This document shows, piece after piece, positions 3,554 through 61,039 of a stretch of 64,000 nucleotides of DNA. The position numbers and the translations under genes are program-made. Origin of the DNA: Escherichia phage rV5_ev158. The DNA is taken from the sequence record LR694611. One strand, 5' to 3'. Within the stretch, counting starts at the first letter, position 1, and every line of letters starts with the position of its first letter. The notes beneath the pieces were generated by a model. That model searched no databases. It was not told the DNA's origin and worked only from the letters and a program-made list of their open reading frames with translations.

Positions 3554-4372
3554 TTGAGCAAGAAAGAGTCCAACGACAAATATTACACAAACCCTGAGTA
3601 TGCAGAATATCTTGTTGGTAAAGTAAAAGATAAGTATGGAAATTGTGCATACGTTGAGCCTTCTGCTGGAAGGGGTTCTTTTTCAAAACTATTTTCAGAG
3701 ATACTGTCTTACGATCTAGTACCAGATCCTGAATTTGAAGGACCAACACCGTGCATTCAGGCAAACTTCTTGGAGGTGCATCCCAAGGCAGATGTCTTCA
3801 TAGGTAACCCACCATTTGGCAAGAATTCATCTTTAGCTTGCAAATTCTTTAACCATTGTGCATCATTGCTAGAGCTTGGAGGGGCTATAGCCTTCATCTT
3901 GCCACGGACATTTGAAAAAATATTTTTTGCAAACAAACTGGACATGTCGATGCACCTTGTCTACAGTGAAAGGTGCCCTAAGAACTCGTTTCTACTTAAT
4001 GGCAAACCTTATGACGTGCCGTGTGTTTTCCAAATTTGGGAGAAAAAGGCGTGCAACAGGGATCCTGTAGAGATTGGGGAGAATAAGTTATTTTCTTTTA
4101 GCACTCCAGATGACTACGACTTCTGTGTAAGACGTGTTGGGTATAATGCTGGAAAAGTATTGGGGGAGGATGACCCAAAATCTGAAGAATCAACATATTT
4201 CATAAAATCTTTAGTTGACGGTGTTGACAGAGTGTTTGCTGAATGCTATTCTTCTTTTCAAGAAGAAGCAGGTAAGACTGCCGGAATGAAGAGTATAGGT
4301 AAGAAAGAACTACAATACATTTTGGAGACTAGGTATGATCAAAAGCATAGACTTGACCAAAGAACTTACTGA
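3554..4372 (+). CDS. N6-adenine DNA methyltransferase (gamma-class, TaqI-like motif order)
   Basis: KYYTNPEYAEYLV, then VEPSAGRGSF (AdoMet motif I-like), then FIGNPPFGK (motif IV); start placed at in-frame TTG 3554 after the terminator, GGAGG 4 nt upstream. Confidence 0.6.
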   Translation: MSKKESNDKYYTNPEYAEYLVGKVKDKYGNCAYVEPSAGRGSFSKLFSEILSYDLVPDPEFEGPTPCIQANFLEVHPKADVFIGNPPFGKNSSLACKFFNHCASLLELGGAIAFILPRTFEKIFFANKLDMSMHLVYSERCPKNSFLLNGKPYDVPCVFQIWEKKACNRDPVEIGENKLFSFSTPDDYDFCVRRVGYNAGKVLGEDDPKSEESTYFIKSLVDGVDRVFAECYSSFQEEAGKTAGMKSIGKKELQYILETRYDQKHRLDQRTY

Positions 4373-4415
4373 TGCAAAAGCTTTTGGTGAGACAGCGGTA
4401 CAAAGGGGGCAGGCG

Positions 4416-4793
4416 ATGGGACTGGCACTACCTTTCGTATTAAAAGAGCACTTTACAGATTTTCAACTTATCAAGGGTGATAAGGGAATGCTTATCCTGG
4501 AGCATAAGTTGAGTAAGAAACGCTATAAAGTTGTTTTTAATTCTAAAGCTCCAACAAAACTGGGATTCAGAACTTACAATCTTAACCCATCCTACACTAA
4601 GGGTGTTGGAAGGGTAGAACAACAGCATTTCAGTGCCAGAGCTTCTTTAGCCCCTTTGATGCTAAATTTCTCAGGGGTGGCTTTAGGATACCTTGATAAG
4701 AAAAGAGTTCTTCATGTCCGTTTCACAGACTTTGTAACGCTTCTAGCCAACAACGAGGTTGATGAAAAGGGACGTGTAAAAACAAACTTCTAA
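4416..4793 (+). CDS. hypothetical protein
   Basis: Listed ORF starts at 4335; internal ATG 4416 has AAGGGGG 6 nt upstream. Confidence 0.45.
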   Translation: MGLALPFVLKEHFTDFQLIKGDKGMLILEHKLSKKRYKVVFNSKAPTKLGFRTYNLNPSYTKGVGRVEQQHFSARASLAPLMLNFSGVALGYLDKKRVLHVRFTDFVTLLANNEVDEKGRVKTNF

Positions 4794-4820
4794 TAACGCA
4801 TAGTATGATTGGAGAACGCA

Positions 4821-5012
4821 ATGACACTAAAGTTAACAATTCCAGACAGCTTTTCAGAAGACTTTATCCCAGAAATGATGGGTAAGATGCGATCATTGCT
4901 TGATCAGATCGAGGAAGCTGTTTGGGAAGACGATGCTGTAGTGGCTAACGAGCTGGTAGATAAGTGTAAAAGTATTATTGATGCAGTTGAAGAATACCAC
5001 GGAGGTTTTTGA
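4821..5012 (+). CDS. hypothetical protein
   Basis: ATG 4821 preceded by GGAGA; 63 aa. Confidence 0.4.
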   Translation: MTLKLTIPDSFSEDFIPEMMGKMRSLLDQIEEAVWEDDAVVANELVDKCKSIIDAVEEYHGGF

Positions 5013-5626
5013 TGGATATTATTGTTCTTAACGCCCCACCCAGCAGTGGTAAGGATCACATTGCAGATCTCTTGTTGGAAGCTATTCCTAACTCACACCA
5101 CCGTGAGGTTAAGGAGATGCTCTTCAGTGTGGCAATTAAGGCAGCTGGTGTAACTCCTCAACTCTGGAATGCACTTTATGACCGCCACTACAAAGAAGAG
5201 CCTTGCCCTTTCTTAATGATAGACGGTAAGCATGTTTCTCCGCGAGAATGGATGATCCATTGTAGTGAAAATCTGATTAAACCTATCTTTGGTGAAGATG
5301 CTTTCGGTAAAGCCGCAGTCGCATCTTTGAAGAAAGATTTCCCTAAAGGTAAAGGGGTTGTTGTTTACTCCGATGGTGGATTCAAAGAGGAGCTGGCATG
5401 CCTTAGCGAGTACGCGTACAGCACAGGTGGAGATCTGTTGTTGTTCCGTATTCACCGTGTCGGATATGACTGGGGAAATGATTCCAGAACCTATCTAAGT
5501 CTGGAAAAGAACGGAATAAAAGGAATTGAGTTCGATGTTGTAAACCCTGAAGGTGCACCTTGGGAATGTGCATCGGAGATTGTGTGCAAGTATATTGATG
5601 CTAAAGAGGCCCAAGAAGAATGTTAA
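5009..5626 (+). CDS. deoxynucleoside monophosphate kinase-like (P-loop)
   Basis: N-terminal IIVLNAPPSSGKDHIADLL resembles the T4 gp1 dNMP kinase P-loop (recalled LSGVKRSGKDT). Confidence 0.45.
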   Translation: MMDIIVLNAPPSSGKDHIADLLLEAIPNSHHREVKEMLFSVAIKAAGVTPQLWNALYDRHYKEEPCPFLMIDGKHVSPREWMIHCSENLIKPIFGEDAFGKAAVASLKKDFPKGKGVVVYSDGGFKEELACLSEYAYSTGGDLLLFRIHRVGYDWGNDSRTYLSLEKNGIKGIEFDVVNPEGAPWECASEIVCKYIDAKEAQEEC

Positions 5627-6213
5627 TCGGTATTGATGTAGATTTGACACTGGTAGATTCAGGAACAGCATGGTGGGAGTGGTTGGAGCGTTTATATGGT
5701 CCAGCCAGTAAGACAGTCACTAAACCTTCTAATGGGTTAATGTATTACGATCTGTCAAAGTATTGGCCTGATCGCCCCAAAGAAAACATCATAGGGCCTT
5801 TTGATTTCTGGAGTGACCCGTTCCTCTACGACTTTCTTAAGCCTGAAGATGGGGCTATTGAGGTTATGAAAGATTTGGTGGCTCGTGGTCACAAGCTTGC
5901 ATTTATCTCGGTATGCAAGAAAGGTCACCTTGCATCTAAATCAAGGTTCTTAAAGCGTTGGACTAGTGATTTTATGGATCTGGACGATCACACCCAGGGT
6001 CACGGCTTCTACGCCACGCATTTCAAGGGAAATGTGGCTGTAGATGTTATAATTGACGACAGGCATGAATACCTGAACCAATTCGCTTCACGCCCTGAAG
6101 TTATTAAAATTCTAAAAGATACGCCTTATGAGCAATTTGAGGAGTTAAAGGTCAGTGTTGACTATACCGCTAATAGCTGGTATAAAATAGGAAAGTTTTT
6201 AGAAGGTATTTGA
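5620..6213 (+). CDS. HAD-superfamily 5'-deoxyribonucleotidase-like
   Basis: N-terminal GIDVDLTLVDS fits HAD motif I DxDxT. Confidence 0.45.
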   Translation: MLIGIDVDLTLVDSGTAWWEWLERLYGPASKTVTKPSNGLMYYDLSKYWPDRPKENIIGPFDFWSDPFLYDFLKPEDGAIEVMKDLVARGHKLAFISVCKKGHLASKSRFLKRWTSDFMDLDDHTQGHGFYATHFKGNVAVDVIIDDRHEYLNQFASRPEVIKILKDTPYEQFEELKVSVDYTANSWYKIGKFLEGI

Positions 6214-6214
6214 A

Positions 6215-6415
6215 ATGGGCAGATGTTCTAAAGGTGGCGATCCTGTAGTCAGATACGGTGACTGGCTAGAGGTGTATGATCTGGGAGGTAAGCTGGTGTA
6301 TGCCTCCAGGATCACCCAAGACATGTGCTCCGATATGTTCAACAGATACCTTGCATTTAAGGCCAACATAAACCCAGACGAAATTTCCAAAATTAAAACA
6401 AGGAGAGCTAAATAA
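6215..6415 (+). CDS. hypothetical protein
   Basis: 66 aa ORF. Confidence 0.4.
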   Translation: MGRCSKGGDPVVRYGDWLEVYDLGGKLVYASRITQDMCSDMFNRYLAFKANINPDEISKIKTRRAK

Positions 6416-7398
6416 TGCTAAAACTGTGCACTGCAAAGATCATTGCTGACAGCATTTCCGAGAAAGGTAAGCGCATCACCACTTTTGAGCTAGAGTATCC
6501 TCGAATTATTCACTCAGAGCTTATGACGCACCGAGTGTTCAGCCGAAACGCCATGTCTTCCCGTGCAGTGCCTGTCGGAAAGATGCTGCAACAGATTGTG
6601 GAGAATCCGGCAATGCCAGTTCGCTTCGGTGTAAATAAGCGAGGAATGGAAGATGGTGGGGAACACGATCAAAAGATCCGTGTAGAGTACACTGATATGG
6701 AGCTAACTCCGGAAGAGTTTTGGAAAGAAGCTGCAAAAAACGCCGCTTGGCATGCAGAGAAGTTTGCCCTTGCTGGTTACCATAAGCAAGTATGTAACCG
6801 CTTAGTGGAGCCTTTTCAGCGCATGAAAACAGTTGTAACAAGCACCGAGTGGAATAATTTTTTCCACCTCCGTTGCTGGCACGATGCGGATCCTACGATT
6901 CAGATGTTAGCTAATTGTATGTGGGAGGCTCTTGTGAATAGCACTCCTGAAATCCTTAAACCGGGTCAATGGCACACTCCATATGTAGAGCACGTTTATT
7001 TGGACGGGGAGTTTAACTACGCTGTACGTGACACAGAAGGAAAGCTCTGCATTCTCGATACTAAAGAAGCTCTGGCTATCAGTGCTAGTTGCTGTGCACA
7101 AGTATCTTATCGAAATATTGACAGCACGTTTGAAAAGGCAGACAGTGTGGCTAAAAAATTGATTGGTGGGGATCGTATTCATGCAAGCCCTTACGAGCAC
7201 CAGGCAACACCTATGGATCACGATAACGCAATGGAACGTTTAAACTACTACCTGTCTTCATGTGAAATCACACAAGACATCAGTACTTGGCAGGAAGGTG
7301 TAACCCATCAAGACCGTGATGGTAAATTCTGGTCTGCCAACTTTTGTGGGTGGGTTCAGCACAGACAACTGCTTAATAACCACTTCGTGAAAGGTTAA
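6415..7398 (+). CDS. thyX: flavin-dependent thymidylate synthase ThyX
   Basis: ThyX signature RHR-x7-S-x-R present as THRVFSRNAMSSRAVP. Confidence 0.8.
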   Translation: MLKLCTAKIIADSISEKGKRITTFELEYPRIIHSELMTHRVFSRNAMSSRAVPVGKMLQQIVENPAMPVRFGVNKRGMEDGGEHDQKIRVEYTDMELTPEEFWKEAAKNAAWHAEKFALAGYHKQVCNRLVEPFQRMKTVVTSTEWNNFFHLRCWHDADPTIQMLANCMWEALVNSTPEILKPGQWHTPYVEHVYLDGEFNYAVRDTEGKLCILDTKEALAISASCCAQVSYRNIDSTFEKADSVAKKLIGGDRIHASPYEHQATPMDHDNAMERLNYYLSSCEITQDISTWQEGVTHQDRDGKFWSANFCGWVQHRQLLNNHFVKG

Positions 7399-7427
7399 TC
7401 CTATCACAGCGATAGGTAACTTTTGTG

Positions 7428-7456
7428 TTGACTAATAGTATTAGATAATCTATAAT
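7428..7456 (+). promoter_or_regulatory. sigma70-like promoter TTGACT-17-TATAAT
   Basis: Perfect -35/-10 with 17 bp spacer, after palindrome CTATCACAGCGATAG (7401-7415). Confidence 0.6.
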
Positions 7457-7484
7457 AATGGCTCACTTTGTTGGTGAGCCAGAA

Positions 7485-7958
7485 ATGGAGACAGATATGA
7501 GTAATGTTATGATTCCTAAAAAGACATTTATTTCAGTTACTTTGGATTTCCTATCTACCGTTCCCGGGTTTAACGTTCGCACACGAAACGGTCTCCGAGC
7601 TGCACTCTTTGCCGTAGGGTTTGATTTAAAAAGTATTGATGTTCTTCGTGGAAAAAACGTTCGATGCAAAAATAAGCCAACACATTATCGAAAGGCAGAT
7701 GTATTTGCTGGTGTCATGCGTGCAGACTTTAGATACCCGCAAATGTATAACGGTGTAGATATTTTAGATGTGGATAAAGCACCTGGTGAGGCAATGCTTG
7801 TTCAAGATCTTCCGTATGATATTCCTGTAGAGGATCGTGTTAATGTAAGAAAGTATACAAAACAATCTGAAAAGGCTGAAGATATTCATATTGTTGATGA
7901 ACCTTTCAATTTTGAAGATCTGCATCGCCTGGAAAAATTATTCGGTATTGAAAGCTAA
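7485..7958 (+). CDS. hypothetical protein
   Basis: Listed ORF begins at 7458, directly abutting the -10; in-frame ATG 7485 has GGTGAG upstream and is more plausible. Confidence 0.5.
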   Translation: METDMSNVMIPKKTFISVTLDFLSTVPGFNVRTRNGLRAALFAVGFDLKSIDVLRGKNVRCKNKPTHYRKADVFAGVMRADFRYPQMYNGVDILDVDKAPGEAMLVQDLPYDIPVEDRVNVRKYTKQSEKAEDIHIVDEPFNFEDLHRLEKLFGIES

Positions 7959-7968
7959 GGTGGTGAAG

Positions 7969-8199
7969 ATGAGTCATAACTCCAAGTGGAAGGATCTTGG
8001 TTTTGCAAGTCGGTCAGAGTATGTTGGTTGGCTTTGGTTCAACGGCCTGACAAACGATATTAAAATGTATGATGATGTTTATTATGACGAGTATACAGGC
8101 AAAATTATAAATATCTCTGTAGAAGAGGATACCTTTATCCAGCAAGATACTGATACCTGCCTTGATAAATACGTTGATGAAGTGGAGGAAGCAAATTGA
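7969..8199 (+). CDS. hypothetical protein
   Basis: ATG 7969 preceded by AAGGTGG; 76 aa. Confidence 0.45.
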   Translation: MSHNSKWKDLGFASRSEYVGWLWFNGLTNDIKMYDDVYYDEYTGKIINISVEEDTFIQQDTDTCLDKYVDEVEEAN

Positions 8200-10511
8200 T
8201 CACCAAGGTAATTAAAAGCAACGGATGTGAAGTGGCATTCGATCCAGAACGTTTAAATAAGGCAGCTATTTTCGGTGACGACGGTAACGGCAATTGGTCA
8301 CATATTGCACTGGATGCATACAAACGACTGTATGATGGATGTACAACCAAAGAAGTTAACCAAGCTATCATAGACTCCTGTGTTAGCCGTAAAGACGAAG
8401 CACATTCCCGTATGGCTGGTCGTGTTCTTATTGGTCAGATTTATAAAGAGGCTTTTGGAGGGTTTACAAAGATCCCTTCCTTACCATCATTTTACAACGA
8501 CATGGTTGAGAAAGGGTATTGGGAGGATATGGGATATAGCTTTACCGAGCTAAACACTTTAGACGCTGTTATTGACCACAGTAAAGATCTCGGTTATGGC
8601 TATGCAGTCCTTAAACAGTTTCGCGACAAATACGGGATCAAGGATACTCTTAAAGACACCTTGTTTGAATCTCCCCAGATGATGTTTATGGGGATAGCAA
8701 TGGCTGTCATGAAGAATATGCCGAAAGAACGTCGTATCAACGATGTTGTAAAATTATACACTTATCTGTCCGACTTAAAGATCAATGCCCCGACACCGTA
8801 CTTAAACGGGCTGCGCACAGGTAAGACAGGGTATGCATCTTGTTGTGTAATAAAAGCTGACGATACAGCAAAATCTATTGGTGTGGCACGTGAAGTTGCG
8901 TACACAATGACGGTTAACCAAGCAGGTATCGGCTACTATTTATCATCAAGATCTGCAGGTGATGGTGTTCGCGGTAACACTATTAAACACATGGGTAAGA
9001 TTCCATATTATCGAGGTATTGATGCTGGTGTTAAGGAGAACAGACAACAATCACGTGGCGGTTCTGCAACAGTATCATTCCTTGCACTGGACCCGCAGAT
9101 TGATGAGCTAATCCGTTTGAGAAACCCTATGACTGTTGCTTCAAAAAGAATCAACACCATGGACTACTCCATCGGTATTAATAGGTCGTTTATCAACCGT
9201 GTGGCTAAGAATTTAGATTGGATGCTTGTTTCTTATAAGCACGCTCCTCAACTGCATGAGGGTATCTTCACCATGTCTATGGAGGAGTTCGATGCAGAGG
9301 TTGAGCGTATTGCTAAAGATGACAGTATTCCTAAGACATGGATCCGGGCTAGAGATCTTGCTGTTGAGCTGATCACGCAGCGTACTGAGGTGGGAAGGCT
9401 GTACGTATACTGGACAGATGAGATGAATAGACATACACCTTTTAAAGATGTGATCTATTCAAGCAACCTGTGTGCAGAAATAGCCCTCCCGACAAAAGGC
9501 TATTCAGATATGCGTAATATCTTCAAGTACGATGTTGATGATGGTGAGGTTGCATTGTGCTTCCTGTCATCTCTTGTAGCTGGGAGGGTTACTCCAGAGG
9601 AGTATGAGGATGTTGCATACTATACGGTGCTTATGATTGACAATGTTATGGAAATCATGACATATCCGTATGAAAATATGGAAAGCACAGTTAAAAAACG
9701 CAGATCCATCGGGGTTGGCCTTACCAATGTTGCACATTTTATTGCCAGCCATAAGGTTACTTACGGGTCTCCTGAAAGTAAACAGCTTGTTCACGATCTT
9801 GCAGAACTTCACAGCTACAGCTTGCATAAGGCAAGTTTACGGTTGGCAAAAGAGCGTGGTGTCTGCGAGTGGATGCATAAAACAAAATATCCAGAAGGTT
9901 GGTTACCAATCGACACCTATAACAAAGAGGTCGATAGCGTGGTGAAAGATCCTTCTCTTAAACAGGATTGGGAAGGGTTACGTAAAGAAATCATTGAGAA
10001 TGGTGGGCTACGTAATAGCGTTCTTGAAGCATATATGCCTAATGAAAGCTCTTCGCTGGCAACAAACACCACTAACGGGGTTTATCCTGTCCGTGAGCAC
10101 ATTATCTTTAAAAAGTCGCCACAAGGGCAGGTGCTGTTTATCGTTCCTGACTATGATGGGTTGAAAGAGTATTACACCTCGGCTTGGGACGTTGATACTA
10201 ACGACATGATCGATATGTACGCCGTGATTCAAAAATTCACAGGTCAGGCAATCAGCGCGGATTTATACATAGACTACACCAAGTTGAAAGATGGTAAAAT
10301 TTCAATGAAGGAGCAGTTAGGGTACCTTATCCGTGCCACTAAATTCGGGATGAAGACATGGTATTATTTAAACTCTAGGGTTGGTGCTGGTGACTCCTTG
10401 GCAGAGGAACTTCATGCCAAGAAACAGGCTGAAGATGAAACCAGAAAGAACTATCCTTTGATTGCAGATAGTTCAGTTGAAGATCCGTATTGCGAAAGCT
10501 GTGCACTATAA
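8196..10511 (+). CDS. nrdA: ribonucleoside-diphosphate reductase large subunit (class I)
   Basis: 771 aa; N-terminal ATP-cone-like VIKSNGCEVAFDPERL; active-site NLCAEIALP; terminator follows. Confidence 0.9.
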   Translation: MITKVIKSNGCEVAFDPERLNKAAIFGDDGNGNWSHIALDAYKRLYDGCTTKEVNQAIIDSCVSRKDEAHSRMAGRVLIGQIYKEAFGGFTKIPSLPSFYNDMVEKGYWEDMGYSFTELNTLDAVIDHSKDLGYGYAVLKQFRDKYGIKDTLKDTLFESPQMMFMGIAMAVMKNMPKERRINDVVKLYTYLSDLKINAPTPYLNGLRTGKTGYASCCVIKADDTAKSIGVAREVAYTMTVNQAGIGYYLSSRSAGDGVRGNTIKHMGKIPYYRGIDAGVKENRQQSRGGSATVSFLALDPQIDELIRLRNPMTVASKRINTMDYSIGINRSFINRVAKNLDWMLVSYKHAPQLHEGIFTMSMEEFDAEVERIAKDDSIPKTWIRARDLAVELITQRTEVGRLYVYWTDEMNRHTPFKDVIYSSNLCAEIALPTKGYSDMRNIFKYDVDDGEVALCFLSSLVAGRVTPEEYEDVAYYTVLMIDNVMEIMTYPYENMESTVKKRRSIGVGLTNVAHFIASHKVTYGSPESKQLVHDLAELHSYSLHKASLRLAKERGVCEWMHKTKYPEGWLPIDTYNKEVDSVVKDPSLKQDWEGLRKEIIENGGLRNSVLEAYMPNESSSLATNTTNGVYPVREHIIFKKSPQGQVLFIVPDYDGLKEYYTSAWDVDTNDMIDMYAVIQKFTGQAISADLYIDYTKLKDGKISMKEQLGYLIRATKFGMKTWYYLNSRVGAGDSLAEELHAKKQAEDETRKNYPLIADSSVEDPYCESCAL

Positions 10512-10516
10512 TTTTA

Positions 10517-10538
10517 AAGGGGCTTCGGCCCCATTTTA
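10517..10538 (+). terminator. Rho-independent terminator / intercistronic hairpin
   Basis: AAAGGGGCTTCGGCCCC followed by ATTTT. Confidence 0.5.
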
Positions 10539-10549
10539 GAGGTAGAATA

Positions 10550-11638
10550 ATGGCTGTATTTAATGCTGAGAACACCGCTCATAAAACTGGTGACTATCCG
10601 CTGTTTCTGGGACAGCAAATGGGTATGTACGACTCTATCAACAAAAAATATCCACAACTGTTTGAACTATACAAAAAACAAAAAGAGCAAGATTGGGCAG
10701 AGGATGAAGTGGATTTGTCGCAATCTATTTCAGATTTTGTAACATGCTCAAAGTCAACTTATGACGTGATGGTGCAGACCTTGATGTGGCAATGGGAGGC
10801 TGATAGCGTTGCGGCAAGATCGATCATCTGCCTCTTTTCACCATTCATCACTAATAGTGAGCTTTTCACTCTATTGATGAAACAGTCAGAGATTGAAGTT
10901 CTTCACGCACTAACTTACTCAGAGATTGTTAGACAATGCCTCCCCAATGCCCGTGAGATTATAGAAGAGATTCAGGAAAACCAAAACGTTCTGAGCAGAT
11001 CCGTCGTTATTGTCAAATACATGCAAGAGCTTGAGGTTATTGGTGCAAAATACCGCCTGGATCCTTCTAGTGTTGAAGAAGATATTGTGCGGAAATGCAT
11101 TCTTAGAGCGCTTTTTGCGCTTTTAGCTCTGGAAAGTATTGAGTTTATTGCAAGTTTTGCATGCACTTTCGCAGTAGCTGAACAGGGTATCTTTGTTCAG
11201 GTGGCGCAGCTTGTTCAAAAAATCATGCTTGACGAAATGCTACATTCGAAAGGTGATTTTGCCATCATTGATATCTTGCTTAATGATCCCGCATGGGAGA
11301 AAAGCTTCCTTGAGATAAAGGGGGAGTTAAAAGAGATTCTTGATGAAGTACGAACCAAAGAGTACGGTTGGAGTGACTATATTTTCAGCGAAGGAAGAGC
11401 GATTATAGGTCTTAACTCACCGTTGCTTAAAGAGTGGGTTGACTATAACTGCTCACCGATTTATGATTACTACGACATCGACAAAGACTTTGTGCCGCCA
11501 ACAAAGGACCCGCTACCGTTTATGCAGGTGTGGATGAAACCTTCATTGCAACAGACGGCGAACCAAGAAATGTCGAACACTGACTACCGCGTCAACACAA
11601 CTGTTAACGACGCTGAAGAAGAAATTTGGGAGTTTTAA
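10550..11638 (+). CDS. nrdB: ribonucleoside-diphosphate reductase small subunit
   Basis: ATG 10550 after hairpin with AGAGGTAG upstream; ferritin-like small-subunit features; acidic C-terminal tail EEEIWEF. Confidence 0.8.
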   Translation: MAVFNAENTAHKTGDYPLFLGQQMGMYDSINKKYPQLFELYKKQKEQDWAEDEVDLSQSISDFVTCSKSTYDVMVQTLMWQWEADSVAARSIICLFSPFITNSELFTLLMKQSEIEVLHALTYSEIVRQCLPNAREIIEEIQENQNVLSRSVVIVKYMQELEVIGAKYRLDPSSVEEDIVRKCILRALFALLALESIEFIASFACTFAVAEQGIFVQVAQLVQKIMLDEMLHSKGDFAIIDILLNDPAWEKSFLEIKGELKEILDEVRTKEYGWSDYIFSEGRAIIGLNSPLLKEWVDYNCSPIYDYYDIDKDFVPPTKDPLPFMQVWMKPSLQQTANQEMSNTDYRVNTTVNDAEEEIWEF

Positions 11639-11641
11639 TAT

Positions 11642-11920
11642 ATGAGCTGCGAAAAATCTTTTTTCATCATCATTTACGGTAAGGATAACTGCCCACATTG
11701 TGTCAGAGCAAAAGAATTTGCAATCAGCAAAGGTCTGCCTTTTGTATATAAGACACTTGGCGAGGGCTACACAAAAGAAGAGCTTATTGAGAAGTGTAGT
11801 CCAATCGTCCCCCGAACGTTGCCGCAGATCTTCTTAGAAAGCGATCTTGACAGTATCCATATAGGCGGTGCCGACGATTTCATCTCTTTTGTTAAGAATG
11901 GTTTTGGAGAGAAAAAGTGA
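11642..11920 (+). CDS. glutaredoxin/thioredoxin-like redoxin (NrdC/NrdH-like)
   Basis: CPHC active site in YGKDNCPHCVRAKEF; sits between nrdB and nrdD. Confidence 0.75.
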   Translation: MSCEKSFFIIIYGKDNCPHCVRAKEFAISKGLPFVYKTLGEGYTKEELIEKCSPIVPRTLPQIFLESDLDSIHIGGADDFISFVKNGFGEKK

Positions 11921-14040
11921 AAGTTGTAAAACGGGACGGTAGAGAAGAGTTCTATAACGGAATTAAGGTGATCAAGGCGGCAGAGTCCGCCTTACTTGAG
12001 TCTGGACATACTGAAGAAGAAGCTTACCGGATCGCCTGCGCGGTTAATGAAGTTGTTGCTAACAATCTACCAACCGACCAGTGCACAATCTCTGTAAAAA
12101 ATATCCATATCCTTGTTGAAGATGCTCTTATGGATATGGGTTTAAAATGTGCAGCCAGAGAATACATCCAGTATAGACAGACAAGAGATAATAACAGAGA
12201 GGCAGGTGGAAAACTGCTTGCAGATATTAGTGGCTTCTTGGATCGAACTTGTGATGAATTTACAAAAGAAAACGCAAATAAGCCTACTAATCATGTACAC
12301 ACTCATCGCGACCTGCTTGCAGGTATTCTTAGCAAACACCTTGCATCAACACAGATCCTGCCAGACCGTGTCTCCGAAGAGCACAATAAAGGCTTCATCC
12401 ATGTGCATGATCTTGACTACTTGATCAGTCCGTTAACAAACTGTTGTTTGGTAAATTATCCAGATATGTTGGAAAACGGATTCAACATTGGTAACGCCCA
12501 TGTCAGTAAGCCGAAGTCAATAGGGGTTGCAACAACAATCCTTAGCCAAATTTCTAGTGCGGTAGCTAGTGCTCAATATGGTGGTCAGACTATGAGCCAT
12601 ATTGATCATTATCTGGCACAGTATGCTGAAGCAACCTATGAGAAGAACCTTAAATTTTGCCAGGAACATTGGTTGCCAAATGCTGAGAGTGTTGCAATGC
12701 AAATGACAGATAAAGACGTATTTGACAGCATGCAGACTTTGCTCTATCAAATCAATACGTTAACTTCTGTCAACGGGCAAACTCCATTCATCACATTGAG
12801 TTTAGGACTGGATACCTCGGTCTTTGGTAGAATGATTACCAAAAACTACCTGAAAGTCCACAAAATGGGTCTTGGTGAAGAACGTATTACACCTGTGTTC
12901 CCTAAAGTGCTGTTCTTCCTAGAAGAGGGTGTCAACATGAACCCTGGGGATCCTAACTATGATTTGAAACGATTAGCTCTGGAATGCTGTGCAGAACGTA
13001 TCTACCCTGACTTCGTATCTGTACCACTAAATAGAAAAGTGACAGGCTCGACAGATGGCAAAGTAACTAGCATGGGTTGCAGGAGTTTTCTTAGCAAATA
13101 CAATGACTTGGAAACAGGCGAGGAGAAATACCTTGGCAGATTTAACTTAGGCGTTGTTAGCCTTAACCTGCCAATGATTGCGGCAAAAGCCAAGACGGAA
13201 GGTGTTGATTTCTTTGCAGTTCTTGACGAATACTTGGATCTTGCATACGAGGCTCACCTTGTAAGGGTTAATCGTCTAAAAGGAACAAAGGCAGGGCAGA
13301 ACCCCATCATGTGGTGTGAAGGCGCTCTTGCTCGCCTGGATCCTGAAGAGAGTATTGATAAACTCTTCTATGACGGGTACGCTTCCATCAGTATTGGGTA
13401 TATCGGTGTGTATGAAACCTGTCAGATTTTGGGCAGAGAGGGTGACAAGGCTTTAGCTCTTGGAATCCTTCAGCACATGAGAGATGCTTGTGAGCGATAC
13501 AAGAAGGAAAGTAGACTAGCATTTAGCTTGTACGGCACTCCTTCTGAGAGTCTATGCTATAAAGCTGCAACCTGTCTGGATCGTGAATATCCGGAAGTGT
13601 TGAAGCACGAGCATGAATATCTCACCAACAGTTTCCATCAGCCAGTATGGATAAATAGCTCTCCTTTTGATAAGTGGGAGTATGAGGAAGGTTTTGCTAT
13701 GATCTCCTCTGGTGGCAACATCGGATACGTAGAAACACCTAACCTGAAAAACAACCTGGATGCTTTAGAGGCTCTTGTTGACTTCGGGTATAAACACATT
13801 ATGTATTTTGGTATTAACCAACCTGTGGATAAATGTCTCAAGTGTGGTTTCTCTGGTGAGTTCAGTGCAACAGCTAAAGGCTTTGTATGCCCAGAGTGTG
13901 GAAACCATGAAGAGGGAACGATCAGTGTAATTCGACGTGTGTCTGGATACCTTTCCAGTCCTAACTCCCGTCCTTACAATAAAGGTAAGCAAGCGGAAGT
14001 TATCGAGCGAGTTAAGCACTACGGAAGTTGTGGTTGCTGA
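11917..14040 (+). CDS. nrdD: anaerobic ribonucleoside-triphosphate reductase
   Basis: 707 aa; N-terminal ATP cone; C-terminal zinc ribbon CLKCGF...CPECG and glycyl-radical-like RRVSGYL. Confidence 0.85.
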   Translation: MKVVKRDGREEFYNGIKVIKAAESALLESGHTEEEAYRIACAVNEVVANNLPTDQCTISVKNIHILVEDALMDMGLKCAAREYIQYRQTRDNNREAGGKLLADISGFLDRTCDEFTKENANKPTNHVHTHRDLLAGILSKHLASTQILPDRVSEEHNKGFIHVHDLDYLISPLTNCCLVNYPDMLENGFNIGNAHVSKPKSIGVATTILSQISSAVASAQYGGQTMSHIDHYLAQYAEATYEKNLKFCQEHWLPNAESVAMQMTDKDVFDSMQTLLYQINTLTSVNGQTPFITLSLGLDTSVFGRMITKNYLKVHKMGLGEERITPVFPKVLFFLEEGVNMNPGDPNYDLKRLALECCAERIYPDFVSVPLNRKVTGSTDGKVTSMGCRSFLSKYNDLETGEEKYLGRFNLGVVSLNLPMIAAKAKTEGVDFFAVLDEYLDLAYEAHLVRVNRLKGTKAGQNPIMWCEGALARLDPEESIDKLFYDGYASISIGYIGVYETCQILGREGDKALALGILQHMRDACERYKKESRLAFSLYGTPSESLCYKAATCLDREYPEVLKHEHEYLTNSFHQPVWINSSPFDKWEYEEGFAMISSGGNIGYVETPNLKNNLDALEALVDFGYKHIMYFGINQPVDKCLKCGFSGEFSATAKGFVCPECGNHEEGTISVIRRVSGYLSSPNSRPYNKGKQAEVIERVKHYGSCGC

Positions 14041-15251: not shown

Positions 15252-16040
15252 ATGGGTCGAGCTAAAGAAACAAAACGCATGCGTGATGAAGCTAGAGAGG
15301 CTCGCAAATCTGATCGCCTGCGTAAGGCTGCTGAGAAATTTGCTGACGAAAGAGAGCACACCGCTCCAGCTCTCCGACCAATGAATAAGAAGCAGCAAAA
15401 GTATCTTGATTATCTAGGGTCACGTAAGATTATTATTGTAAACGGTGTGTTTGGATCCGGTAAGACATTTATGGCATCTGCATATGCAGGTGATCTTCTG
15501 CGTAAGAACGAGATTGATAAGATCATTGTTGCACGTCCTTACGTCCAGACAGGAAAGACTTCAGGATTTAAACCCGGAAATGCAATGCAGAAACTGTGGC
15601 CCTATCTTCGAAGCATGATGGACACGATTTGTCGTCGTGTTGGCAAAGGTGCTTTTGCCGCAATGCTGGGAGACGGTCAGAACAGTCGTATCGAGATTTG
15701 TGAAGTTGAAAGCATTCGTGGTCGTAGTTTCGATGAGCGATGCTTTGTCCTGATTGACGAGGCACAGCAAACTAACCCTGAAGAAATGTTGTCAATTATC
15801 ACAAGGATCTCTGATCAAGCCACCCTTGTAATTATGGGTGATAATAGCCAACGTGACATCCCTGGTAAATCTGGCCTTGCATGGGTGACGGATTTCTTTA
15901 CTCGTCATCCAGATCCTGAGGTTGGAATGATCAGCTTTGATAGTCCAGACGATGTCGTTCGTTCCGGGTTGGGTCGTCAAATCGCACTCAATCTTATTGA
16001 GGATCGTGCAAATCATATTTGGACCCCTGTTTCCGAGTAA
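15252..16040 (+). CDS. phoH: PhoH-like ATPase
   Basis: Walker A GVFGSGKT; ARPYVQTGKTSGFKPG resembles the recalled PhoH block RPAVEAGEKLGFLPG. Confidence 0.75.
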   Translation: MGRAKETKRMRDEAREARKSDRLRKAAEKFADEREHTAPALRPMNKKQQKYLDYLGSRKIIIVNGVFGSGKTFMASAYAGDLLRKNEIDKIIVARPYVQTGKTSGFKPGNAMQKLWPYLRSMMDTICRRVGKGAFAAMLGDGQNSRIEICEVESIRGRSFDERCFVLIDEAQQTNPEEMLSIITRISDQATLVIMGDNSQRDIPGKSGLAWVTDFFTRHPDPEVGMISFDSPDDVVRSGLGRQIALNLIEDRANHIWTPVSE

Positions 16041-16084
16041 TACAGAAGGGTGGTTATTCCACCCTTAAATATCTAAAACAGTTG

Positions 16085-16113
16085 TTGACAAATAGGCAAG
16101 CTTTAGATATTAT
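16085..16113 (+). promoter_or_regulatory. sigma70-like promoter TTGACA-17-TATTAT
   Basis: -35 at 16085-16090, -10 at 16108-16113. Confidence 0.5.
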
Positions 16114-16141
16114 TATCGGACAAAACAAAGAGAAGGACAGT

Positions 16142-16453: not shown

Positions 16454-16513
16454 AGGTAAATGTGAATCAGGTTTAAATAAATAGCTTTCAACTTCCAATA
16501 TTAAGGATTTCTC

Positions 16514-55559: not shown

Positions 55560-55617
55560 ATACAGTTCTCCTTAAAGGGGAGGCGGTTGTACTACCCCTC
55601 CCACTCTTTGTTAAACA

Positions 55618-57696
55618 TTAAAAAGGCGTTTCATCATCCTCAAAACCAGGGACCGGGTCAGAGGATGGATCATCGTACTGGAGGTCTTCCTGCGTGTCAA
55701 CAGGCTTAACAGTAGGAGTTACAACCTTATCAGCCACAACCTTGCCCATAGGTGTTTCTACAACTGCATGCTCCTGATCCTCAAACATAGCCTGAGGTCT
55801 CCAAACAACCTCCCCACCTTCTCCGTCTGTAAACATTTGCATTTCTTTGTCCCAGTACCAATTACTGGCATCATGGAACTTACCTGTGTGCGGGTCCATA
55901 ACCAAAGTGTCAGCAATACCTAGAGTTTTTGCTGGACGGTTTTTAAGACCTACCAGACGGACACGTCCACGAGAACGATCCACCATTTCTTCGGCCTCGA
56001 CACCTATGACTACCCAACTCAACTGTTCAAGCCCCGCCGATCCTCGCAAATTCTCTTTTCGCACAGGATACCAGAAAGGTAACGGGTTACCATCCTTGTC
56101 CTTAGGAGGCACAATCTCTGTACGTTTGAGGTGAGCGATCACCAAGATAAACACGTTAAACTGCTTACAAAACGCAGCCAGCTGAGTCATAGCCATGTCC
56201 AGTTCTTTTCGCTCATCCTTAACATTAAGCCCTGAAATTACCATGGACAGGTGATCCAGCACAATATAACGGCAATGGTACAGGCAAACCATTTGCTTAA
56301 GCTTGGTAATCAACTCGTCCACCGGAATAGATCCGAAATGTTTGAACACTTTGATTTTTCCAGCTTTTGCCCATGATTGGTGAATCTCTGCGTGTTCTTG
56401 ATCAGTTAAAAACTGGCTAGGATCTTCAACAAACTCTTTAACATCAAACCCTAACTGGTTTGCATACAAGGAGTTAATTGCTTCCTCTGGGTCCTCCTCA
56501 AGATGGATCATACATAGACGATCATCCTCTTCATAGTCATCAGCCTTCGGGCATGTCGGGTCCATTAGGTATCTTGCAATACAATGTTCCAGTTTTTTAG
56601 CTACAGTTGTTTTACCGCCCCCTGATGGCCCTGTAAGCATTACGAGTGTCCCTTTGTGCAAGCCTTTTAGCATTTTTTGCAGTTTTGGGAACTCTGCGCT
56701 GATATCTACCCCGTTGGAAGTCTTTTTCCGCAAAGACTCGATAGAGAAGTCTTCTAAATCCGACACAGCATCAGGCACATATTTAACAGGGTGCCGGAAC
56801 ATGTTGACAATATCTTCCAGCTTTTTAGCCTTCAGCATGTCACGGATATCTTTTACCCCGTCAGGGTCATTTACTTCACCAGGGTATTCTACGTGGTAAA
56901 CGTTATCAGCCATCAAAAATGCTGCGATATTGTGCGTGGCCTCAACACCTTTAATGACGTGTTTTTGCTTCTCTACCTCGTTAGCTGCATCGTTATCCAT
57001 TGCCAGCACAACTGTTCCATAGCTACGGATAAACTTCTCATTGTTTGCAAAAGTATCTACTGCGTTTGCACATCCACAGTTAATTCCAACAAAAGGCAGG
57101 CAGGGTTTTCCTGCCAGATCACCACCGTTGATAACTGCGTCGATCCCGTCCTGGACCTCTTTAGCCCACTGCTTCACCTTTGCCGGGGCTTTAGCGTTGG
57201 TGAGAATCCCTTTTACTTGTATCTGATATGCAGCCTGCCATGCTGCAATAACATCACCTTCTCCCTCACAAACGTTAATCTGCTTACGGTTGTTGGAAGA
57301 TGCACACAGCTTTTGACCAAACATCTGGGAGTTGGCCTTTACGATGCCAACAACGGAGAAGTGGCCCCTTTGTTCTTTAGGAATAGTCCAGTCACGCTTT
57401 TTGAAACCGGACAGATTTCCGTAGCGGTCGTAATATGGGAAATATGTTGCAGTGACTGTCACACCGTCTTCTTGTGACAATGCTGATCGCACACCAAAAT
57501 ATTGTGCAGCCATCAGACCGATATTTTGTTGTGGGACAGGGACAATTTTAGTATTTTCTAAAACAGTCTCTACAGTTTCAACTTCTTTTTCATCACGATA
57601 GTCTCGTTTCACACTTCCCCCACTTTTATACTTAGTTGCTTTCGGGTTTGGCTCACCGAAACGGTTGTATGCAGATGCCATAAATTTACTTCCCAT
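55618..57696 (-). CDS. primase-helicase (TOPRIM primase plus DnaB/gp4-like helicase)
   Basis: 692 aa; TOPRIM-like VVLAMDNDAAN; Walker A LTGPSGGGKTT; Walker B-like IVLDHLSMV. Confidence 0.75.
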   Translation of the reverse strand: MGSKFMASAYNRFGEPNPKATKYKSGGSVKRDYRDEKEVETVETVLENTKIVPVPQQNIGLMAAQYFGVRSALSQEDGVTVTATYFPYYDRYGNLSGFKKRDWTIPKEQRGHFSVVGIVKANSQMFGQKLCASSNNRKQINVCEGEGDVIAAWQAAYQIQVKGILTNAKAPAKVKQWAKEVQDGIDAVINGGDLAGKPCLPFVGINCGCANAVDTFANNEKFIRSYGTVVLAMDNDAANEVEKQKHVIKGVEATHNIAAFLMADNVYHVEYPGEVNDPDGVKDIRDMLKAKKLEDIVNMFRHPVKYVPDAVSDLEDFSIESLRKKTSNGVDISAEFPKLQKMLKGLHKGTLVMLTGPSGGGKTTVAKKLEHCIARYLMDPTCPKADDYEEDDRLCMIHLEEDPEEAINSLYANQLGFDVKEFVEDPSQFLTDQEHAEIHQSWAKAGKIKVFKHFGSIPVDELITKLKQMVCLYHCRYIVLDHLSMVISGLNVKDERKELDMAMTQLAAFCKQFNVFILVIAHLKRTEIVPPKDKDGNPLPFWYPVRKENLRGSAGLEQLSWVVIGVEAEEMVDRSRGRVRLVGLKNRPAKTLGIADTLVMDPHTGKFHDASNWYWDKEMQMFTDGEGGEVVWRPQAMFEDQEHAVVETPMGKVVADKVVTPTVKPVDTQEDLQYDDPSSDPVPGFEDDETPF

Positions 57697-58480
57697 TAAT
57701 TCTGCTCCTTACTACAGGCTCGTTTGCTAGGAATACGGCTTTTGCCCAGCCACGTGGTGTGAGGCTTCGGATCATCTTCGTTCTTGCACTCTTTCCACCC
57801 AGCTTGGCGTGTTGCATGGAATACCCGCTAACCGCGTCAACTATTTGCGGGACAGGTTTTGTGGCCGGGATTATAAATCCATTACCTATCCAGCCGCAAG
57901 TTATTTTTGGATAGGCATCACGTGGAGCTATAAATTCAGGAAACCAGGGGTTTACATCATCCTCCGGTAAATACCCGCCATAGTCAGAAGGGTGAAAACG
58001 GTAATCAGGTTTGCGCCACAGTGTGGACATAACACCCACAGGATTCTCTACATGCCACGGGCAATCGTAAATCTCTCCCAACTCTTCTGCAACCCGAGCA
58101 TCCTTTACAGCATTAATCTGGATCAGCGGGTCCTTAGCCAGCTTCTTCTTAAAGTGTGCAGCACCTGACACCGCTAAGTGGGTGCACGGAGGAAATGCAA
58201 GAACAAAGTCCGGAGCTGGGTACATGCAGAAAGTTTCCTGAGGGAACCATGGATCAATCCAATAATCTACATAGTGAATATTTGGATGATCGGTGATCAC
58301 CTCTGCATAACTGCCGTGGTCAGCACCTTCTGCGTTAAAGCACAGGCACAGATATCCAGCTTTTGCCCAGTCAATGACTGCACCGCCAGATCCGTCAAAT
58401 AGACTCCACACAACACCTTTGTGGTAGTGTTCTTTATAGATAAATTTCAATTTGCTGTCTCCTAATGCAAAAAGCCCCAC
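57686..58480 (-). CDS. C5-cytosine methyltransferase-like protein (short)
   Basis: LFDGSGG (motif I FxGxG), AFPPC (motif IV PC) and HVENPVG (motif VI ENV) in C5-MTase order; only 264 aa. Confidence 0.45.
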   Translation of the reverse strand: MGLFALGDSKLKFIYKEHYHKGVVWSLFDGSGGAVIDWAKAGYLCLCFNAEGADHGSYAEVITDHPNIHYVDYWIDPWFPQETFCMYPAPDFVLAFPPCTHLAVSGAAHFKKKLAKDPLIQINAVKDARVAEELGEIYDCPWHVENPVGVMSTLWRKPDYRFHPSDYGGYLPEDDVNPWFPEFIAPRDAYPKITCGWIGNGFIIPATKPVPQIVDAVSGYSMQHAKLGGKSARTKMIRSLTPRGWAKAVFLANEPVVRSRINGK

Positions 58481-58495
58481 CCTTTCGGGCAGGGC
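58468..58495 (-). terminator. Rho-independent terminator (repeated element, copy 2)
   Basis: Identical GCCCCACCCTTTCGGGCAGGGC hairpin. Confidence 0.55.
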
Positions 58496-58501
58496 CTAGT
58501 G

Positions 58502-58984
58502 TTAAACCCGGATACCTATTGTATACTCGGTGGATACCAATGTCAAATCTAAATTTAAAATTTCTTGCATCTCATAGTATGCATCCAGGGTGAGATACAT
58601 TTCCCCATCCTTTTCTACATACTTGTCCAAGTGCTTGAGGCATTTCGGATAACTATCAAGGGCAGCCTTTAGGCACTCAAACTCTGTGCTGTTGATGAGT
58701 CCTTCCATCTTGGCTACCCGTTCTGGGGTAACGATAGCACTGTAGTGAGATTTAGCTTCCTGGATGCAATGGGTCCAAGCATCAACTTTCTCTTCGAAAA
58801 GTCCGAAGAACTTCTTTTTGGTGAGCTTCAGATTCTTTAAGTGCTTAAGCACTCGGTTACCGATCACAGCCACATCACGAAACTTAAGGATCACTTTGTC
58901 GATATCCTCGCGGCCTATTTTCACAAAGCAAGCCTCACACATTTCAGGAGCTGCGTAACCTACTTTCCACATAAAATCTGACAT
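58502..58984 (-). CDS. hypothetical protein
   Basis: 160 aa. Confidence 0.5.
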   Translation of the reverse strand: MSDFMWKVGYAAPEMCEACFVKIGREDIDKVILKFRDVAVIGNRVLKHLKNLKLTKKKFFGLFEEKVDAWTHCIQEAKSHYSAIVTPERVAKMEGLINSTEFECLKAALDSYPKCLKHLDKYVEKDGEMYLTLDAYYEMQEILNLDLTLVSTEYTIGIRV

Positions 58985-58996
58985 AACACTATCCCC

Positions 58997-59395
58997 TTAT
59001 TCTTCCTGAAAAGCAACGATATCATATGAACTTGCAGACGATCCTGGTGAAGAATGACTCCAGTCTAGGTCATCAGAGTAGTCAGCGTACTGTGCACCAC
59101 TACGTAGTTTATATTTTACCCACTTACCTGGTGCAGGGTTTTCACCACCTTCCCATACTTCCCAGCCTTCTGGCAGGCCGTCCTGGGGATAGTCATCCAC
59201 CTCACTAATAATCTTAGGGTTTGGCACCAAGATCCCTGCAGGCTCTTCCTTCCGGATAAGTGTCCACACAACGTAGGTGTCTGAGCAGGCGCATGATAGC
59301 AAAGTATATCCACTATTCAGAACTTCTGCAAGCTCTTTTTCAGCATCTTCCAATTTGGTTAAGTGGTATTGGATAACCTTCACACCTGTAATCAT
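58997..59395 (-). CDS. hypothetical protein
   Basis: 132 aa. Confidence 0.5.
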   Translation of the reverse strand: MITGVKVIQYHLTKLEDAEKELAEVLNSGYTLLSCACSDTYVVWTLIRKEEPAGILVPNPKIISEVDDYPQDGLPEGWEVWEGGENPAPGKWVKYKLRSGAQYADYSDDLDWSHSSPGSSASSYDIVAFQEE

Positions 59396-59739
59396 CAGAA
59401 ACCTCCCACTTCTTCAGCAAATGCAGCTGCTGTCGTCGCTGCATCCAGATAGGACTCTAGTTCACGGGCTGCACGTTTGTAAATTGAGTGTCGCAAATCG
59501 TTTGGCAGTTGGTGGAAGTCCACCTCTTCACCGTTGTGGTAAACATGCACATCGGTAATTTGTCTAAATCCGTAATAGTCAACATCAGAATCACGGCACT
59601 CTGGGTCTGGCAACTGGACAACTGCCTGAGCTTCCACAGTGAACATATCGTCAAGTTCGAAATCGATTTCAAAAGTGTATGGTTTATAACATTTCATCAT
59701 TTGATTGTACTCTTTATTGATCAGACTTATCTTTCGCAA
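59395..59739 (-). CDS. hypothetical protein
   Basis: 114 aa. Confidence 0.45.
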   Translation of the reverse strand: MRKISLINKEYNQMMKCYKPYTFEIDFELDDMFTVEAQAVVQLPDPECRDSDVDYYGFRQITDVHVYHNGEEVDFHQLPNDLRHSIYKRAARELESYLDAATTAAAFAEEVGGF

Positions 59740-61039
59740 TTAAGGTCGGGGCAAGTTTGTAATAACGGAAGCCACCACCACCTTGCCAGTTTACAGACTT
59801 AGAAATACCACCTTGATCTTCACCATCGATCACTTTTTCCAAGCGCGGAATAATATGGGTATGACAATGATCACCTAGCTCGATTGAGATCCAACGTCTT
59901 TTCATCTTGTGAGCTACAGCAGCAGTAGTTCCCGAACCACCGAATGAATCCAATACCAAATAGCCTTCTCGCGTACACATTTCGAAAATTCGCTTCAAAA
60001 GCGCTTCTGGTTTTTTCCCATTTTTGAAACTAACGCCGCCTTCATTTGCTATTCCATTCCAACTAATGTCTGTCCAAACATCAGTTATTAGTTCCGCAGG
60101 TTGCATATCACCGTCAATTTCCAAAAGCCTGTTGGAGTAAAAGACCATTTGCCTACCATTTACGATATAAAATCCTTCAACATCTTCATTTGGATGTACA
60201 TAAACCTTATCCCTATCTTTCTTTGACTTCTCGATAGTTTCTTTTCTCTTTATTTTAGCACCACCGCCGATTGCAACAGATTGAAATACACGTTCTGCAT
60301 TATCAATTGCGAATTGTGCTAATTCATCATCGAATGTATCAGGCAGTTTTTTCTTGGCCTCTTTTGCATCTTTATAGCCATTGGCCTTTGCAAACGCATC
60401 GGCAATACCGCACCACGTCCAATTTTTATAATGGTCATCCGGGTTTAATAGGTATTTGTTATATCCTGTATCGTACCCTTTAGGTATATAGATTTTGTTA
60501 AGCGGTTTCTGGGTGCGATCTTTTGCATATACAAGCAAAAAGTTTGCTGTGGAGAAAACTGTGGCTCCTGTTGCCTTAAATCCCGAAGGGGAATTTGTGG
60601 TCATCGATATGGTATTTAACTGATTTGCACGACCAAAAATCTCGTCCATCAAAACTTTTAAATACGCCATTTCGCAATCATCTAAGTGAACGAATATTAC
60701 CCCATCATCACTTAGAAGATTACGAATTATTTCTAACCTATCCCTCATTAAGCCCAGCCAAATGGAATGCTCCAGGCTATCATCGTAGTGCTCAAAAGCC
60801 CTCCCGGTATTGAATGGCGGGTCTATGTAAACACACTTCACTTTGCCTGCATACTCTTGCTCTAGCGCCTTCAATGCTAATAAGTTATCTCCAAAAATCA
60901 GTTTATTATCAAAAATATCGTTTTCGGTCACTTTCTGGCTGCGGTAAGACTTGCTAGAATCTTCTAATAAAATGTGCGGCTCTAACTTTTTGCGCTCGTT
61001 TTTACCTATCCAGGTAAGTTCTAATTTGGTTTTGCTCAT
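59714..61039 (-). CDS. DNA methyltransferase (N6-adenine or N4-cytosine, beta-class motif order)
   Basis: VYIDPPFNTG (motif IV) near N-terminus and LVLDSFGGSGTT (motif I) near C-terminus; AAGGAGAG upstream. Confidence 0.7.
   Translation of the reverse strand: MSKTKLELTWIGKNERKKLEPHILLEDSSKSYRSQKVTENDIFDNKLIFGDNLLALKALEQEYAGKVKCVYIDPPFNTGRAFEHYDDSLEHSIWLGLMRDRLEIIRNLLSDDGVIFVHLDDCEMAYLKVLMDEIFGRANQLNTISMTTNSPSGFKATGATVFSTANFLLVYAKDRTQKPLNKIYIPKGYDTGYNKYLLNPDDHYKNWTWCGIADAFAKANGYKDAKEAKKKLPDTFDDELAQFAIDNAERVFQSVAIGGGAKIKRKETIEKSKKDRDKVYVHPNEDVEGFYIVNGRQMVFYSNRLLEIDGDMQPAELITDVWTDISWNGIANEGGVSFKNGKKPEALLKRIFEMCTREGYLVLDSFGGSGTTAAVAHKMKRRWISIELGDHCHTHIIPRLEKVIDGEDQGGISKSVNWQGGGGFRYYKLAPTLIAKDKSDQ

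Follow-up and report, generated by a model that had tools for sequence, protein, structure and literature searches.

Stand-alone, or orphan, DNA methyltransferases are familiar in phages, from the Dam enzymes of T4 and T1 to many annotated Dam-like and Dcm-like genes. Several such methylases per genome are common in large phages, and they are often thought to be derived from host restriction systems. A further point of comparison is the type III modification subunit Mod. In EcoP15I, the N-terminal and methyltransferase domains of Mod form the dimer, a central domain recognizes the target and the C-terminal domain contacts the restriction subunit Res, and Mod2 alone is an active stand-alone methylase (PMC4490356). 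A phage related to the one studied here, BME3, has been described as carrying four methyltransferases that protect its genome (PMC12210895). Here we analysed a stretch of 64,000 nucleotides from Escherichia phage rV5_ev158 (record LR694611), which we call the window, and in particular its four methyltransferase genes, M1 to M4. An earlier note on the window had assigned these genes to four classes (gamma, NPPY, C5-like and beta DPPF) and proposed that together they provide extensive self-methylation. We found all four open reading frames (ORFs) where the note had placed them; all four products resemble S-adenosylmethionine (SAM)-dependent DNA methyltransferases, and the class labels were correct. 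The features are as follows.

M1, 3554-4372, plus strand: 272 aa, orphan gamma-type (NPPF) amino-methyltransferase of a family of type II modification methylases
M2, 17615-18148, plus strand: 177 aa, minimal orphan NPPY amino-methyltransferase without a separate target-recognition domain
M3, 57686-58450, minus strand: 254 aa from the TTG at 58450, small orphan C5-cytosine methyltransferase-like enzyme
M4, 59714-61039, minus strand: 441 aa, orphan beta-class (DPPF) type III Mod-like N6-adenine methyltransferase
M4 3′ end, 59705-59725, minus strand: truncation scar, seen by DNA alignment with host mod, by reading of the sequence and by protein alignment

The presence of the four genes is already known, as they are annotated in public records: M1, M2 and M4 as adenine methyltransferases or a type III methylation subunit, and M3 as ‘Phage protein’ in LR694610.1 and elsewhere as ‘Dcm-like C5 cytosine methyltransferase’ or ‘site specific DNA methylase’. 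The gene names in some records imply Dam (GATC) or Dcm (CCWGG) specificity; we found no characterized close homologue, and none of M1 to M4 belongs to the curated Dam families (PF05869 and TIGR01712 both below threshold). Profile scans of the ORFs adjoining M1 to M4 gave no match to a restriction nuclease, and since no gene has a nuclease neighbour, all four are orphans. They share with other phage orphan methyltransferases that they stand alone in a lytic phage and are thought to pre-empt host restriction.

The reading that we favour, with a probability of about 0.7, is that the four stand-alone SAM-dependent methyltransferases give narrow, motif-specific protection, and that M4 copies the mark of one host system. 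The four enzymes would methylate phage DNA as it replicates, each at a short motif of its own, with N6-methyladenine as the product of three and 5-methylcytosine as that of one, and each mark would shield only against restriction enzymes whose sites overlap it, giving narrow rather than general protection. We infer the enzymatic activity, target motifs and protective effect of M1 to M4. Only for M4 can a concrete target be predicted, the host type III system from which it was copied.

M4 is a truncated copy of one host Mod allele

M4 matches PF01555 (E 2e-40; 139.4 bits against a cut-off of 26.7) and has the beta-class motif order, with DPPF (motif IV) near the N terminus and FGGSGTT (motif I) near the C terminus. 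It matches the PADLOC model MTase_III (PDLC03636) with E 2.7e-203 over profile positions 2-444 of 575, and its sequence matches in the PDB are to the Mod of H. pylori (1.8e-27), to EcoP15I Mod (2e-24) and also to Mbo45V. With these type III Mods (EcoP15I 4ZCF, H. pylori 6K0W and Mbo45V 7DSU) it shares the beta order, the N-terminal dimerization segment, the core and the central recognition region; it differs in that the phage has no Res gene and in that M4 ends 128 residues short of the host Mod described below. No Res gene lies beside M4: the flanking ORFs encode small proteins of unknown function and a RecD/PIF1-like helicase, and REase_III matched none of them. M4 is therefore an orphan Mod and not part of a type III system.

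When we searched 5,426 complete E. coli genomes at the DNA level, 24 chromosomes had an M4-like sequence with 94.8% nucleotide identity; there it makes up the initial three quarters of a gene named ‘site-specific DNA-methyltransferase’. At the protein level, residues 1-438 of M4 are 96% identical to residues 2-440 of the 568-residue WP_024226319.1, central variable region included. This host Mod lies directly upstream of, and adjoins, a 912-residue helicase-type Res (PF04851; PADLOC REase_III E 9e-191), and an intact Mod–Res pair was found in 29 of the 5,426 genomes. The host Mod comes in two alleles that are near-identical at both ends and approximately 62% identical overall, with a diverged central catalytic and recognition region. 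M4 follows one of them, allele A, along its entire length. The second allele also occurs on Salmonella IncFIB plasmids with the same gene order. Between M4 and host mod we counted 48 synonymous and 17 non-synonymous differences (dS 0.20, dN 0.0165); the ratio dN/dS of 0.08 indicates that the phage and host copies have both been under protein-level constraint. Close phage copies of M4 were found only in rV5-like genomes (87 records), in which all full-length copies listed are 441 aa long, and the next-best phage homologue is only 42% identical.

The ends of the homology record how the gene was trimmed. Upstream, homology with host mod reaches approximately 13 nt beyond the ATG. At its 3′ end the phage gene has a net loss of 11 nt against host mod, which shifts the frame to SDQ-stop; past this scar approximately 20 nt of host sequence (the INKEYN codons) remain out of frame, homology ends at about 59705 and unrelated phage sequence follows. 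The frameshift scar and its relic codons show that the phage gene was derived from the longer Mod gene and not the reverse. M4 ends at host residue 440 of 568, so that 128 C-terminal residues are gone. We considered whether the ORF after M4 might be the split-off Mod C-terminal domain and rejected this, as it is not homologous apart from the relic. We did not find the host source, the allele match or the C-terminal loss of M4 described in the literature that we searched; they fit a known kind of phage gene rather than extending it.

By position only, the 128 residues absent from M4 would correspond to the Res-contacting C-terminal domain of EcoP15I. M4 would then retain the dimerization N terminus, the catalytic core and the target-recognition region of allele A and, without a Res-binding domain, would write the host ‘self’ mark on phage DNA while no restriction complex is assembled. 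Judged by its sequence, M4 probably protects only against the host type III system from which it was copied. It is also conceivable, but in our view unlikely, that M4 forms mixed dimers with host Mod that fail to recruit Res and thereby inhibits the host type III enzyme in a dominant-negative manner. Mixed dimers are possible because M4 keeps the N-terminal and methyltransferase dimer surfaces and 96% identity, and inhibition would in that case be in force already in the first minutes after infection, when none of the phage DNA has yet been methylated. Taken as a writer of the host mark, M4 offers a testable example of a lytic phage that keeps a trimmed copy of one host type III Mod allele. 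The prediction is that the phage is immune to E. coli strains that carry the allele-A Mod–Res pair in their tRNA-Sec island. As rV5-like phages are used in the typing and biocontrol of Shiga-toxin-producing E. coli, knowing which restriction systems they can and cannot evade is of some practical value.

The host cassette, located at tRNA-Sec in 29 E. coli genomes, consists of a mad1-like helix-turn-helix (HTH) gene, a DrmD-like SNF2 gene (PADLOC DrmD E 1e-208), AbiD, a hypothetical protein, Mod and Res. An example is that of E. coli 2014C-3011 (positions 4115-13464 of the retrieved locus), and the same gene order is found on a Salmonella IncFIB plasmid. We asked whether this island is ARMADA II, which has been reported to act on Vequintavirinae, and rejected the identification: ARMADA II has a YprA-type ArmC, whereas the island has HTH, DrmD-like SNF2, AbiD, Mod and Res.

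Three further orphans: M1, M2 and M3

M1 carries, in order, the motifs YYTNP, EPSAGRGSF and IGNPPFG, which is the gamma-type arrangement X, I, IV; this order is kept across 33 homologues, in which NPPF is invariant. Residues 8-253 match the PADLOC model MTase_II (PDLC03255), a REBASE-derived model of type II DNA methylases, with E 1.3e-33, and the protein falls in phrog_5172. M1 scored below the Pfam thresholds of Eco57I (15.5 bits against 25.3) and MTS (13.7 against 23) and had no NCBIfam match; some of its homologues bear the accession PF26055. Its AlphaFold model has a pLDDT of 91.7, and the best Foldseek matches were M.BseCI, CamA, M.TaqI and the StySJI M subunit (E 1e-6 to 1e-8 on the catalytic domains), with TrmN, Trm5 and PH1948 mixed in among them. 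The motif order with (N/D)PP(Y/F), together with a predicted Rossmann fold like that of M.TaqI, places M1 in the gamma class.

M2 is a smaller version of the same design. Its motifs are, in order, YVTPE, EPC and IITNPPYS, and it matches phrog_799, ‘DNA methyltransferase’, with E 8e-67. TNPP is invariant across 31 M2 homologues, and alignments of 31-33 diverse homologues of M1 and M2 keep YxTP, EP(S/C)xG and NPP(F/Y). M2 was below the curated cut-offs (PF05869, Dam, 19.2 against 28.1 bits; EcoRI_methylase 20.1 against 26.4; TIGR01712 16.1 against 97). In a profile comparison with hhalign, the whole of M2 aligned to the first 180 residues of the M1 family (probability 97.8%, E 1.2e-12), and by its sequence M2 is a minimal enzyme distantly paralogous to the catalytic core of M1. 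M1 and M2 share the X, I, IV order and NPP(F/Y) with gamma-class N6-adenine enzymes such as M.TaqI, M.BseCI, CamA and type I M subunits; they differ from these in their length (272 and 177 aa, against 390-580) and M2 also in having no separate recognition domain. M2 is found in 118 phage records. The gene order of a PhoH-like ATPase, a ClpP-like protease (these two at window 15252-17563, plus strand) and M2 is retained on a metagenomic contig on which M2 is 57% identical, which indicates that M2, unlike M4, is an old resident of the phage lineage. DNA-level searches of the E. coli genomes gave no match to M1 or M2 and five weak partial matches to M3.

Could M1, M2 or both methylate the adenines of rRNA or tRNA rather than DNA? 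The likeness of the catalytic domains extends equally to RNA enzymes: the M1-family profile also matches Ta1320 and METTL5, the M2-family profile matches ErmAM and ErmC′ as well as M.TaqI at E of about 1e-4, the structural matches of M1 include TrmN, Trm5 and PH1948, and some homologues are named ‘predicted RNA methylase’ by the Joint Genome Institute. Genes for tRNAs and for a ribosome hibernation factor are also present in the phage. Single-sequence PDB searches with M1, M2 and M3 returned nothing meaningful, and the matches came from family profiles.

The neighbourhoods of cellular M1 homologues argue for DNA. In Poseidonibacter ostreae and on several Paracoccaceae contigs, a partner gene of 199-216 codons lies directly downstream of the M1 homologue, with the frames overlapping or adjacent. 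The partner protein is conserved between Poseidonibacter and Paracoccaceae (28% identity, E 5e-14) and matches the PADLOC REase_II model PDLC03460 (E 5e-11). For some bacterial and metagenomic homologues the neighbouring genes were uninformative. The pairing of the family with a restriction-nuclease-like partner and the full-length match of M1 to a type II DNA methylase model indirectly support the view that the M1 family methylates DNA and, through the homology that spans all of M2, that M2 does so too. With DNA methylases also at the top of the structural matches, we consider an RNA substrate very improbable.

An IS1595-family transposase gene accompanies these bacterial genes. In Paracoccaceae it lies immediately upstream and overlaps the methylase start, and in Poseidonibacter it is a few kb away on the opposite strand; the Paracoccaceae module also has a 56-aa ORF, beside the transposase, the methylase and the partner of approximately 200 aa. 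The bacterial module looks like a small type II restriction–modification pair that travels with an insertion sequence. In the phage, the end of M1 is overlapped by an ORF of 152 aa (4335-4793, plus strand), which is named ‘putative DNA N6-adenine methyltransferase’ in phage pangalan. It had no Pfam or PADLOC match, falls in phrog_9938 (unknown function) and weakly resembles the N-terminal 91 residues of P0140 (26% identity, E 1e-5). P0140 has 395 aa, and its C-terminal part seems to resemble M1 (47% identity over 95% of M1). The apparent fusion may hint at a functional link with M1, and the ORF may be a separate specificity or accessory subunit, an idea that we regard as weaker than that of a dominant-negative M4. 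We also considered whether this ORF might be a relic of the restriction-nuclease partner, and rejected this.

M3 matches phrog_757 with E 7e-87 and has the motifs FDGSGG (motif I), FPPC (motif IV, with the catalytic cysteine) and ENP (motif VI, in place of ENV). Its family comprises more than 3,500 homologue clusters of proteins of approximately 230 aa, and GSG, PPC and ENP are invariant in 34 aligned sequences. PF00145 (cut-off 22 bits) does not match M3 itself; over motifs I-IV it matches two relatives, P0054 with 24.7 bits (54% identity) and P0070 with 28.5 bits (56% identity). The AlphaFold model of M3 has a pLDDT of 87.1, and the top 50 Foldseek matches in the PDB are all C5 DNA methyltransferases, including DNMT3A/B/C and the CP-933R prophage enzyme 3g7u. 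M3 thus has the motifs and, in its predicted structure, the fold of a C5-methyltransferase. In common with the C5 enzymes (PF00145, the DNMT3A/B catalytic domain, M.HaeIII and 3G7U) it has motifs I, IV and VI, the fold and a motif IX-like RSLTPRG; it departs from them in being only 254 aa long, in its very small variable region and in that the canonical QxRxR motif VIII is not evident.

The earlier note had given M3 as 57686-58480, which is the maximal ORF, but this start is approximately 30 nt too far upstream. The true start is almost certainly the TTG at 58450, which has an AGGAG 8 nt upstream and agrees with the record annotation. In the gap that separates the M3 start from the ORF upstream of it, at 58465-58495 on the minus strand, is a GC-rich hairpin followed by a T-run (GCCCTGCCCGAAAGGGTGGGGCTTTTT); the GTG at 58480 falls inside this hairpin. 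This element looks like an intrinsic terminator placed directly before the M3 ribosome-binding site.

Some features of the four proteins could be taken as signs of decay. The glycine loop of M2 is degenerate (EPCRNSASG), M3 is far shorter than canonical C5 enzymes, and M4, besides being truncated, has D replaced by Y immediately ahead of motif I (EGYLVLDSFGGSG in place of EGDLVFDSFGGSG). That any of the genes is an inactive relic is nevertheless hardly credible: NPPF, TNPP, PPC and ENP are invariant across diverse homologues, the dN/dS of M4 against the host gene is low, and its 441 aa are intact in every full-length copy listed from the 87 records.

Restriction phenotypes, site avoidance and the breadth of protection

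In the BASEL study, around twelve Vequintavirus isolates were phenotyped, and Vequintavirinae were called ‘exceptionally susceptible’ to restriction–modification systems. Several of these isolates match the window at approximately 98-100% over three methyltransferase regions, and at least two over the fourth. One of the isolates, phage MaxBurger, is 98-99% identical to the window over M1, M3 and M4, the three genes compared. In the BASEL raw data (experiment 1), its efficiency of plating was 0.54 on EcoKI and 8.6e-4 on EcoRI, and there were no plaques on EcoRV or on the type III system EcoCFT_II. The restriction of MaxBurger indicates that none of the three adenine enzymes is of low specificity, and the strong restriction of the sister phages in general that any protection is narrow and motif-specific. 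The system from which M4 was copied was outside the BASEL panel, so that these platings do not refute narrow protection.

We also compared observed and expected counts of restriction sites over the whole genome (the window and the rest of the 138 kb; of the Dam and Dcm motifs, GATC only). The following GC-rich 6-bp palindromes were strongly avoided.

TGGCCA: observed 1, expected 17.6
GGCGCC: observed 0, expected 11
CGATCG: observed 1, expected 15
GCTAGC: observed 0, expected 8.5

CCGCGG, CTCGAG, GCCGGC and CGGCCG were also strongly avoided, and GTAC and CTAG were at approximately 0.6 of expectation. TCGA, TTAA, AGCT and TGCA were not avoided, nor was GATC (691 observed, 715 expected), a count that identifies no methylation target.

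These data bear on the proposal in the earlier note that the four enzymes jointly methylate the genome extensively as a general shield, helped by ThyX and nucleotide metabolism. In favour of a general shield are the four enzymes of different classes in one genome and the same claim published for BME3. The plating data, however, have already largely refuted it, and the avoidance of palindromes such as TGGCCA and GGCGCC also makes it unlikely, because avoidance would be needless under such a shield; we think that only a small chance is left for it. ThyX (6415-7398; PF02511) and its neighbours, which include ribonucleotide reductases, make dTMP and deoxynucleoside triphosphates and have no part in SAM-dependent DNA methylation, so that this element of the proposal falls away. 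We saw no DNA hypermodification genes in the genome annotation. What stands of the proposal is self-methylation, the most likely activity of four orphans of three chemical and architectural classes; what the plating data contradict is that the protection is extensive. In its original wording the finding was of little consequence, as the genes are annotated, their kind is familiar and published data speak against broad protection.

A second possibility is that some or all of the enzymes serve the physiology of the phage and not the evasion of defences, through packaging marks, the timing of replication, the control of transcription or escape from mismatch repair. There is precedent for physiological methylation in the Dam of phage P1, which acts at the pac site. 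M1 and M2 lie within a nucleotide-metabolism block and M3 and M4 within a replication block, with genes such as those for ribonucleotide reductases, DNA polymerase and primase-helicase nearby; M2 (beside ClpP/PhoH) and M3 (beside primase-helicase) have long been part of this lineage and keep their synteny. That no protective phenotype has been seen so far and that GATC is not avoided would also fit such a role. However, we identified no regulatory target or motif, and the near-identity of M4 to the Mod of a defence system, specificity region included, is hard to fit to a housekeeping function. We therefore consider a physiological role unlikely.

Narrow protection by four motif-specific marks thus remains the reading that we prefer, and several observations weigh against it. 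The BASEL sister phages were heavily restricted by EcoRI, EcoRV, EcoCFT_II and EcoP1_I, with no benefit seen against any of the six systems tested. M3 itself has no Pfam, NCBIfam or PADLOC match. Literature searches on rV5-like phages found no methylome, restriction-digest or enzymatic data for M1 to M4, and the rV5 genome paper does not mention methylases. To these we add the D-to-Y change beside motif I of M4, the purely positional equation of its missing residues with the Res-contacting domain, and the resemblance of M1 and M2 to RNA methylases.

Distribution of the genes and related records

Approximately 120 near-identical phage genomes are public, and all four genes are kept, in roughly 110-120 Vequintavirus records, with M4 in 87. 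The window corresponds to positions 74127-138125 of LR694610.1 (Escherichia phage rV5_ev168, Vequintavirus). The two are identical up to window position 31480, where there is a single-base indel (window ...ATAATCAGCCATGCC..., LR694610.1 ...ATAATCACCATGCC...), and the end coordinates fit no other indel. No fifth methyltransferase is annotated across the remainder of the 138-kb genome.

Two ‘Campylobacter phage’ records, MG065672.1 and MG065646.1, and about 18 others (host C. jejuni, 137-141 kb) have at least 90% nucleotide identity to this coliphage, and M4 is approximately 99% identical in them at the protein level, which suggests mislabelled hosts or contaminating coliphages. An E. coli plasmid record, CP057073.1, is 137,565 bp long, the size of an rV5-like genome, and encodes an M4 with 98.4% protein identity; it is probably a phage genome that was submitted as a plasmid.

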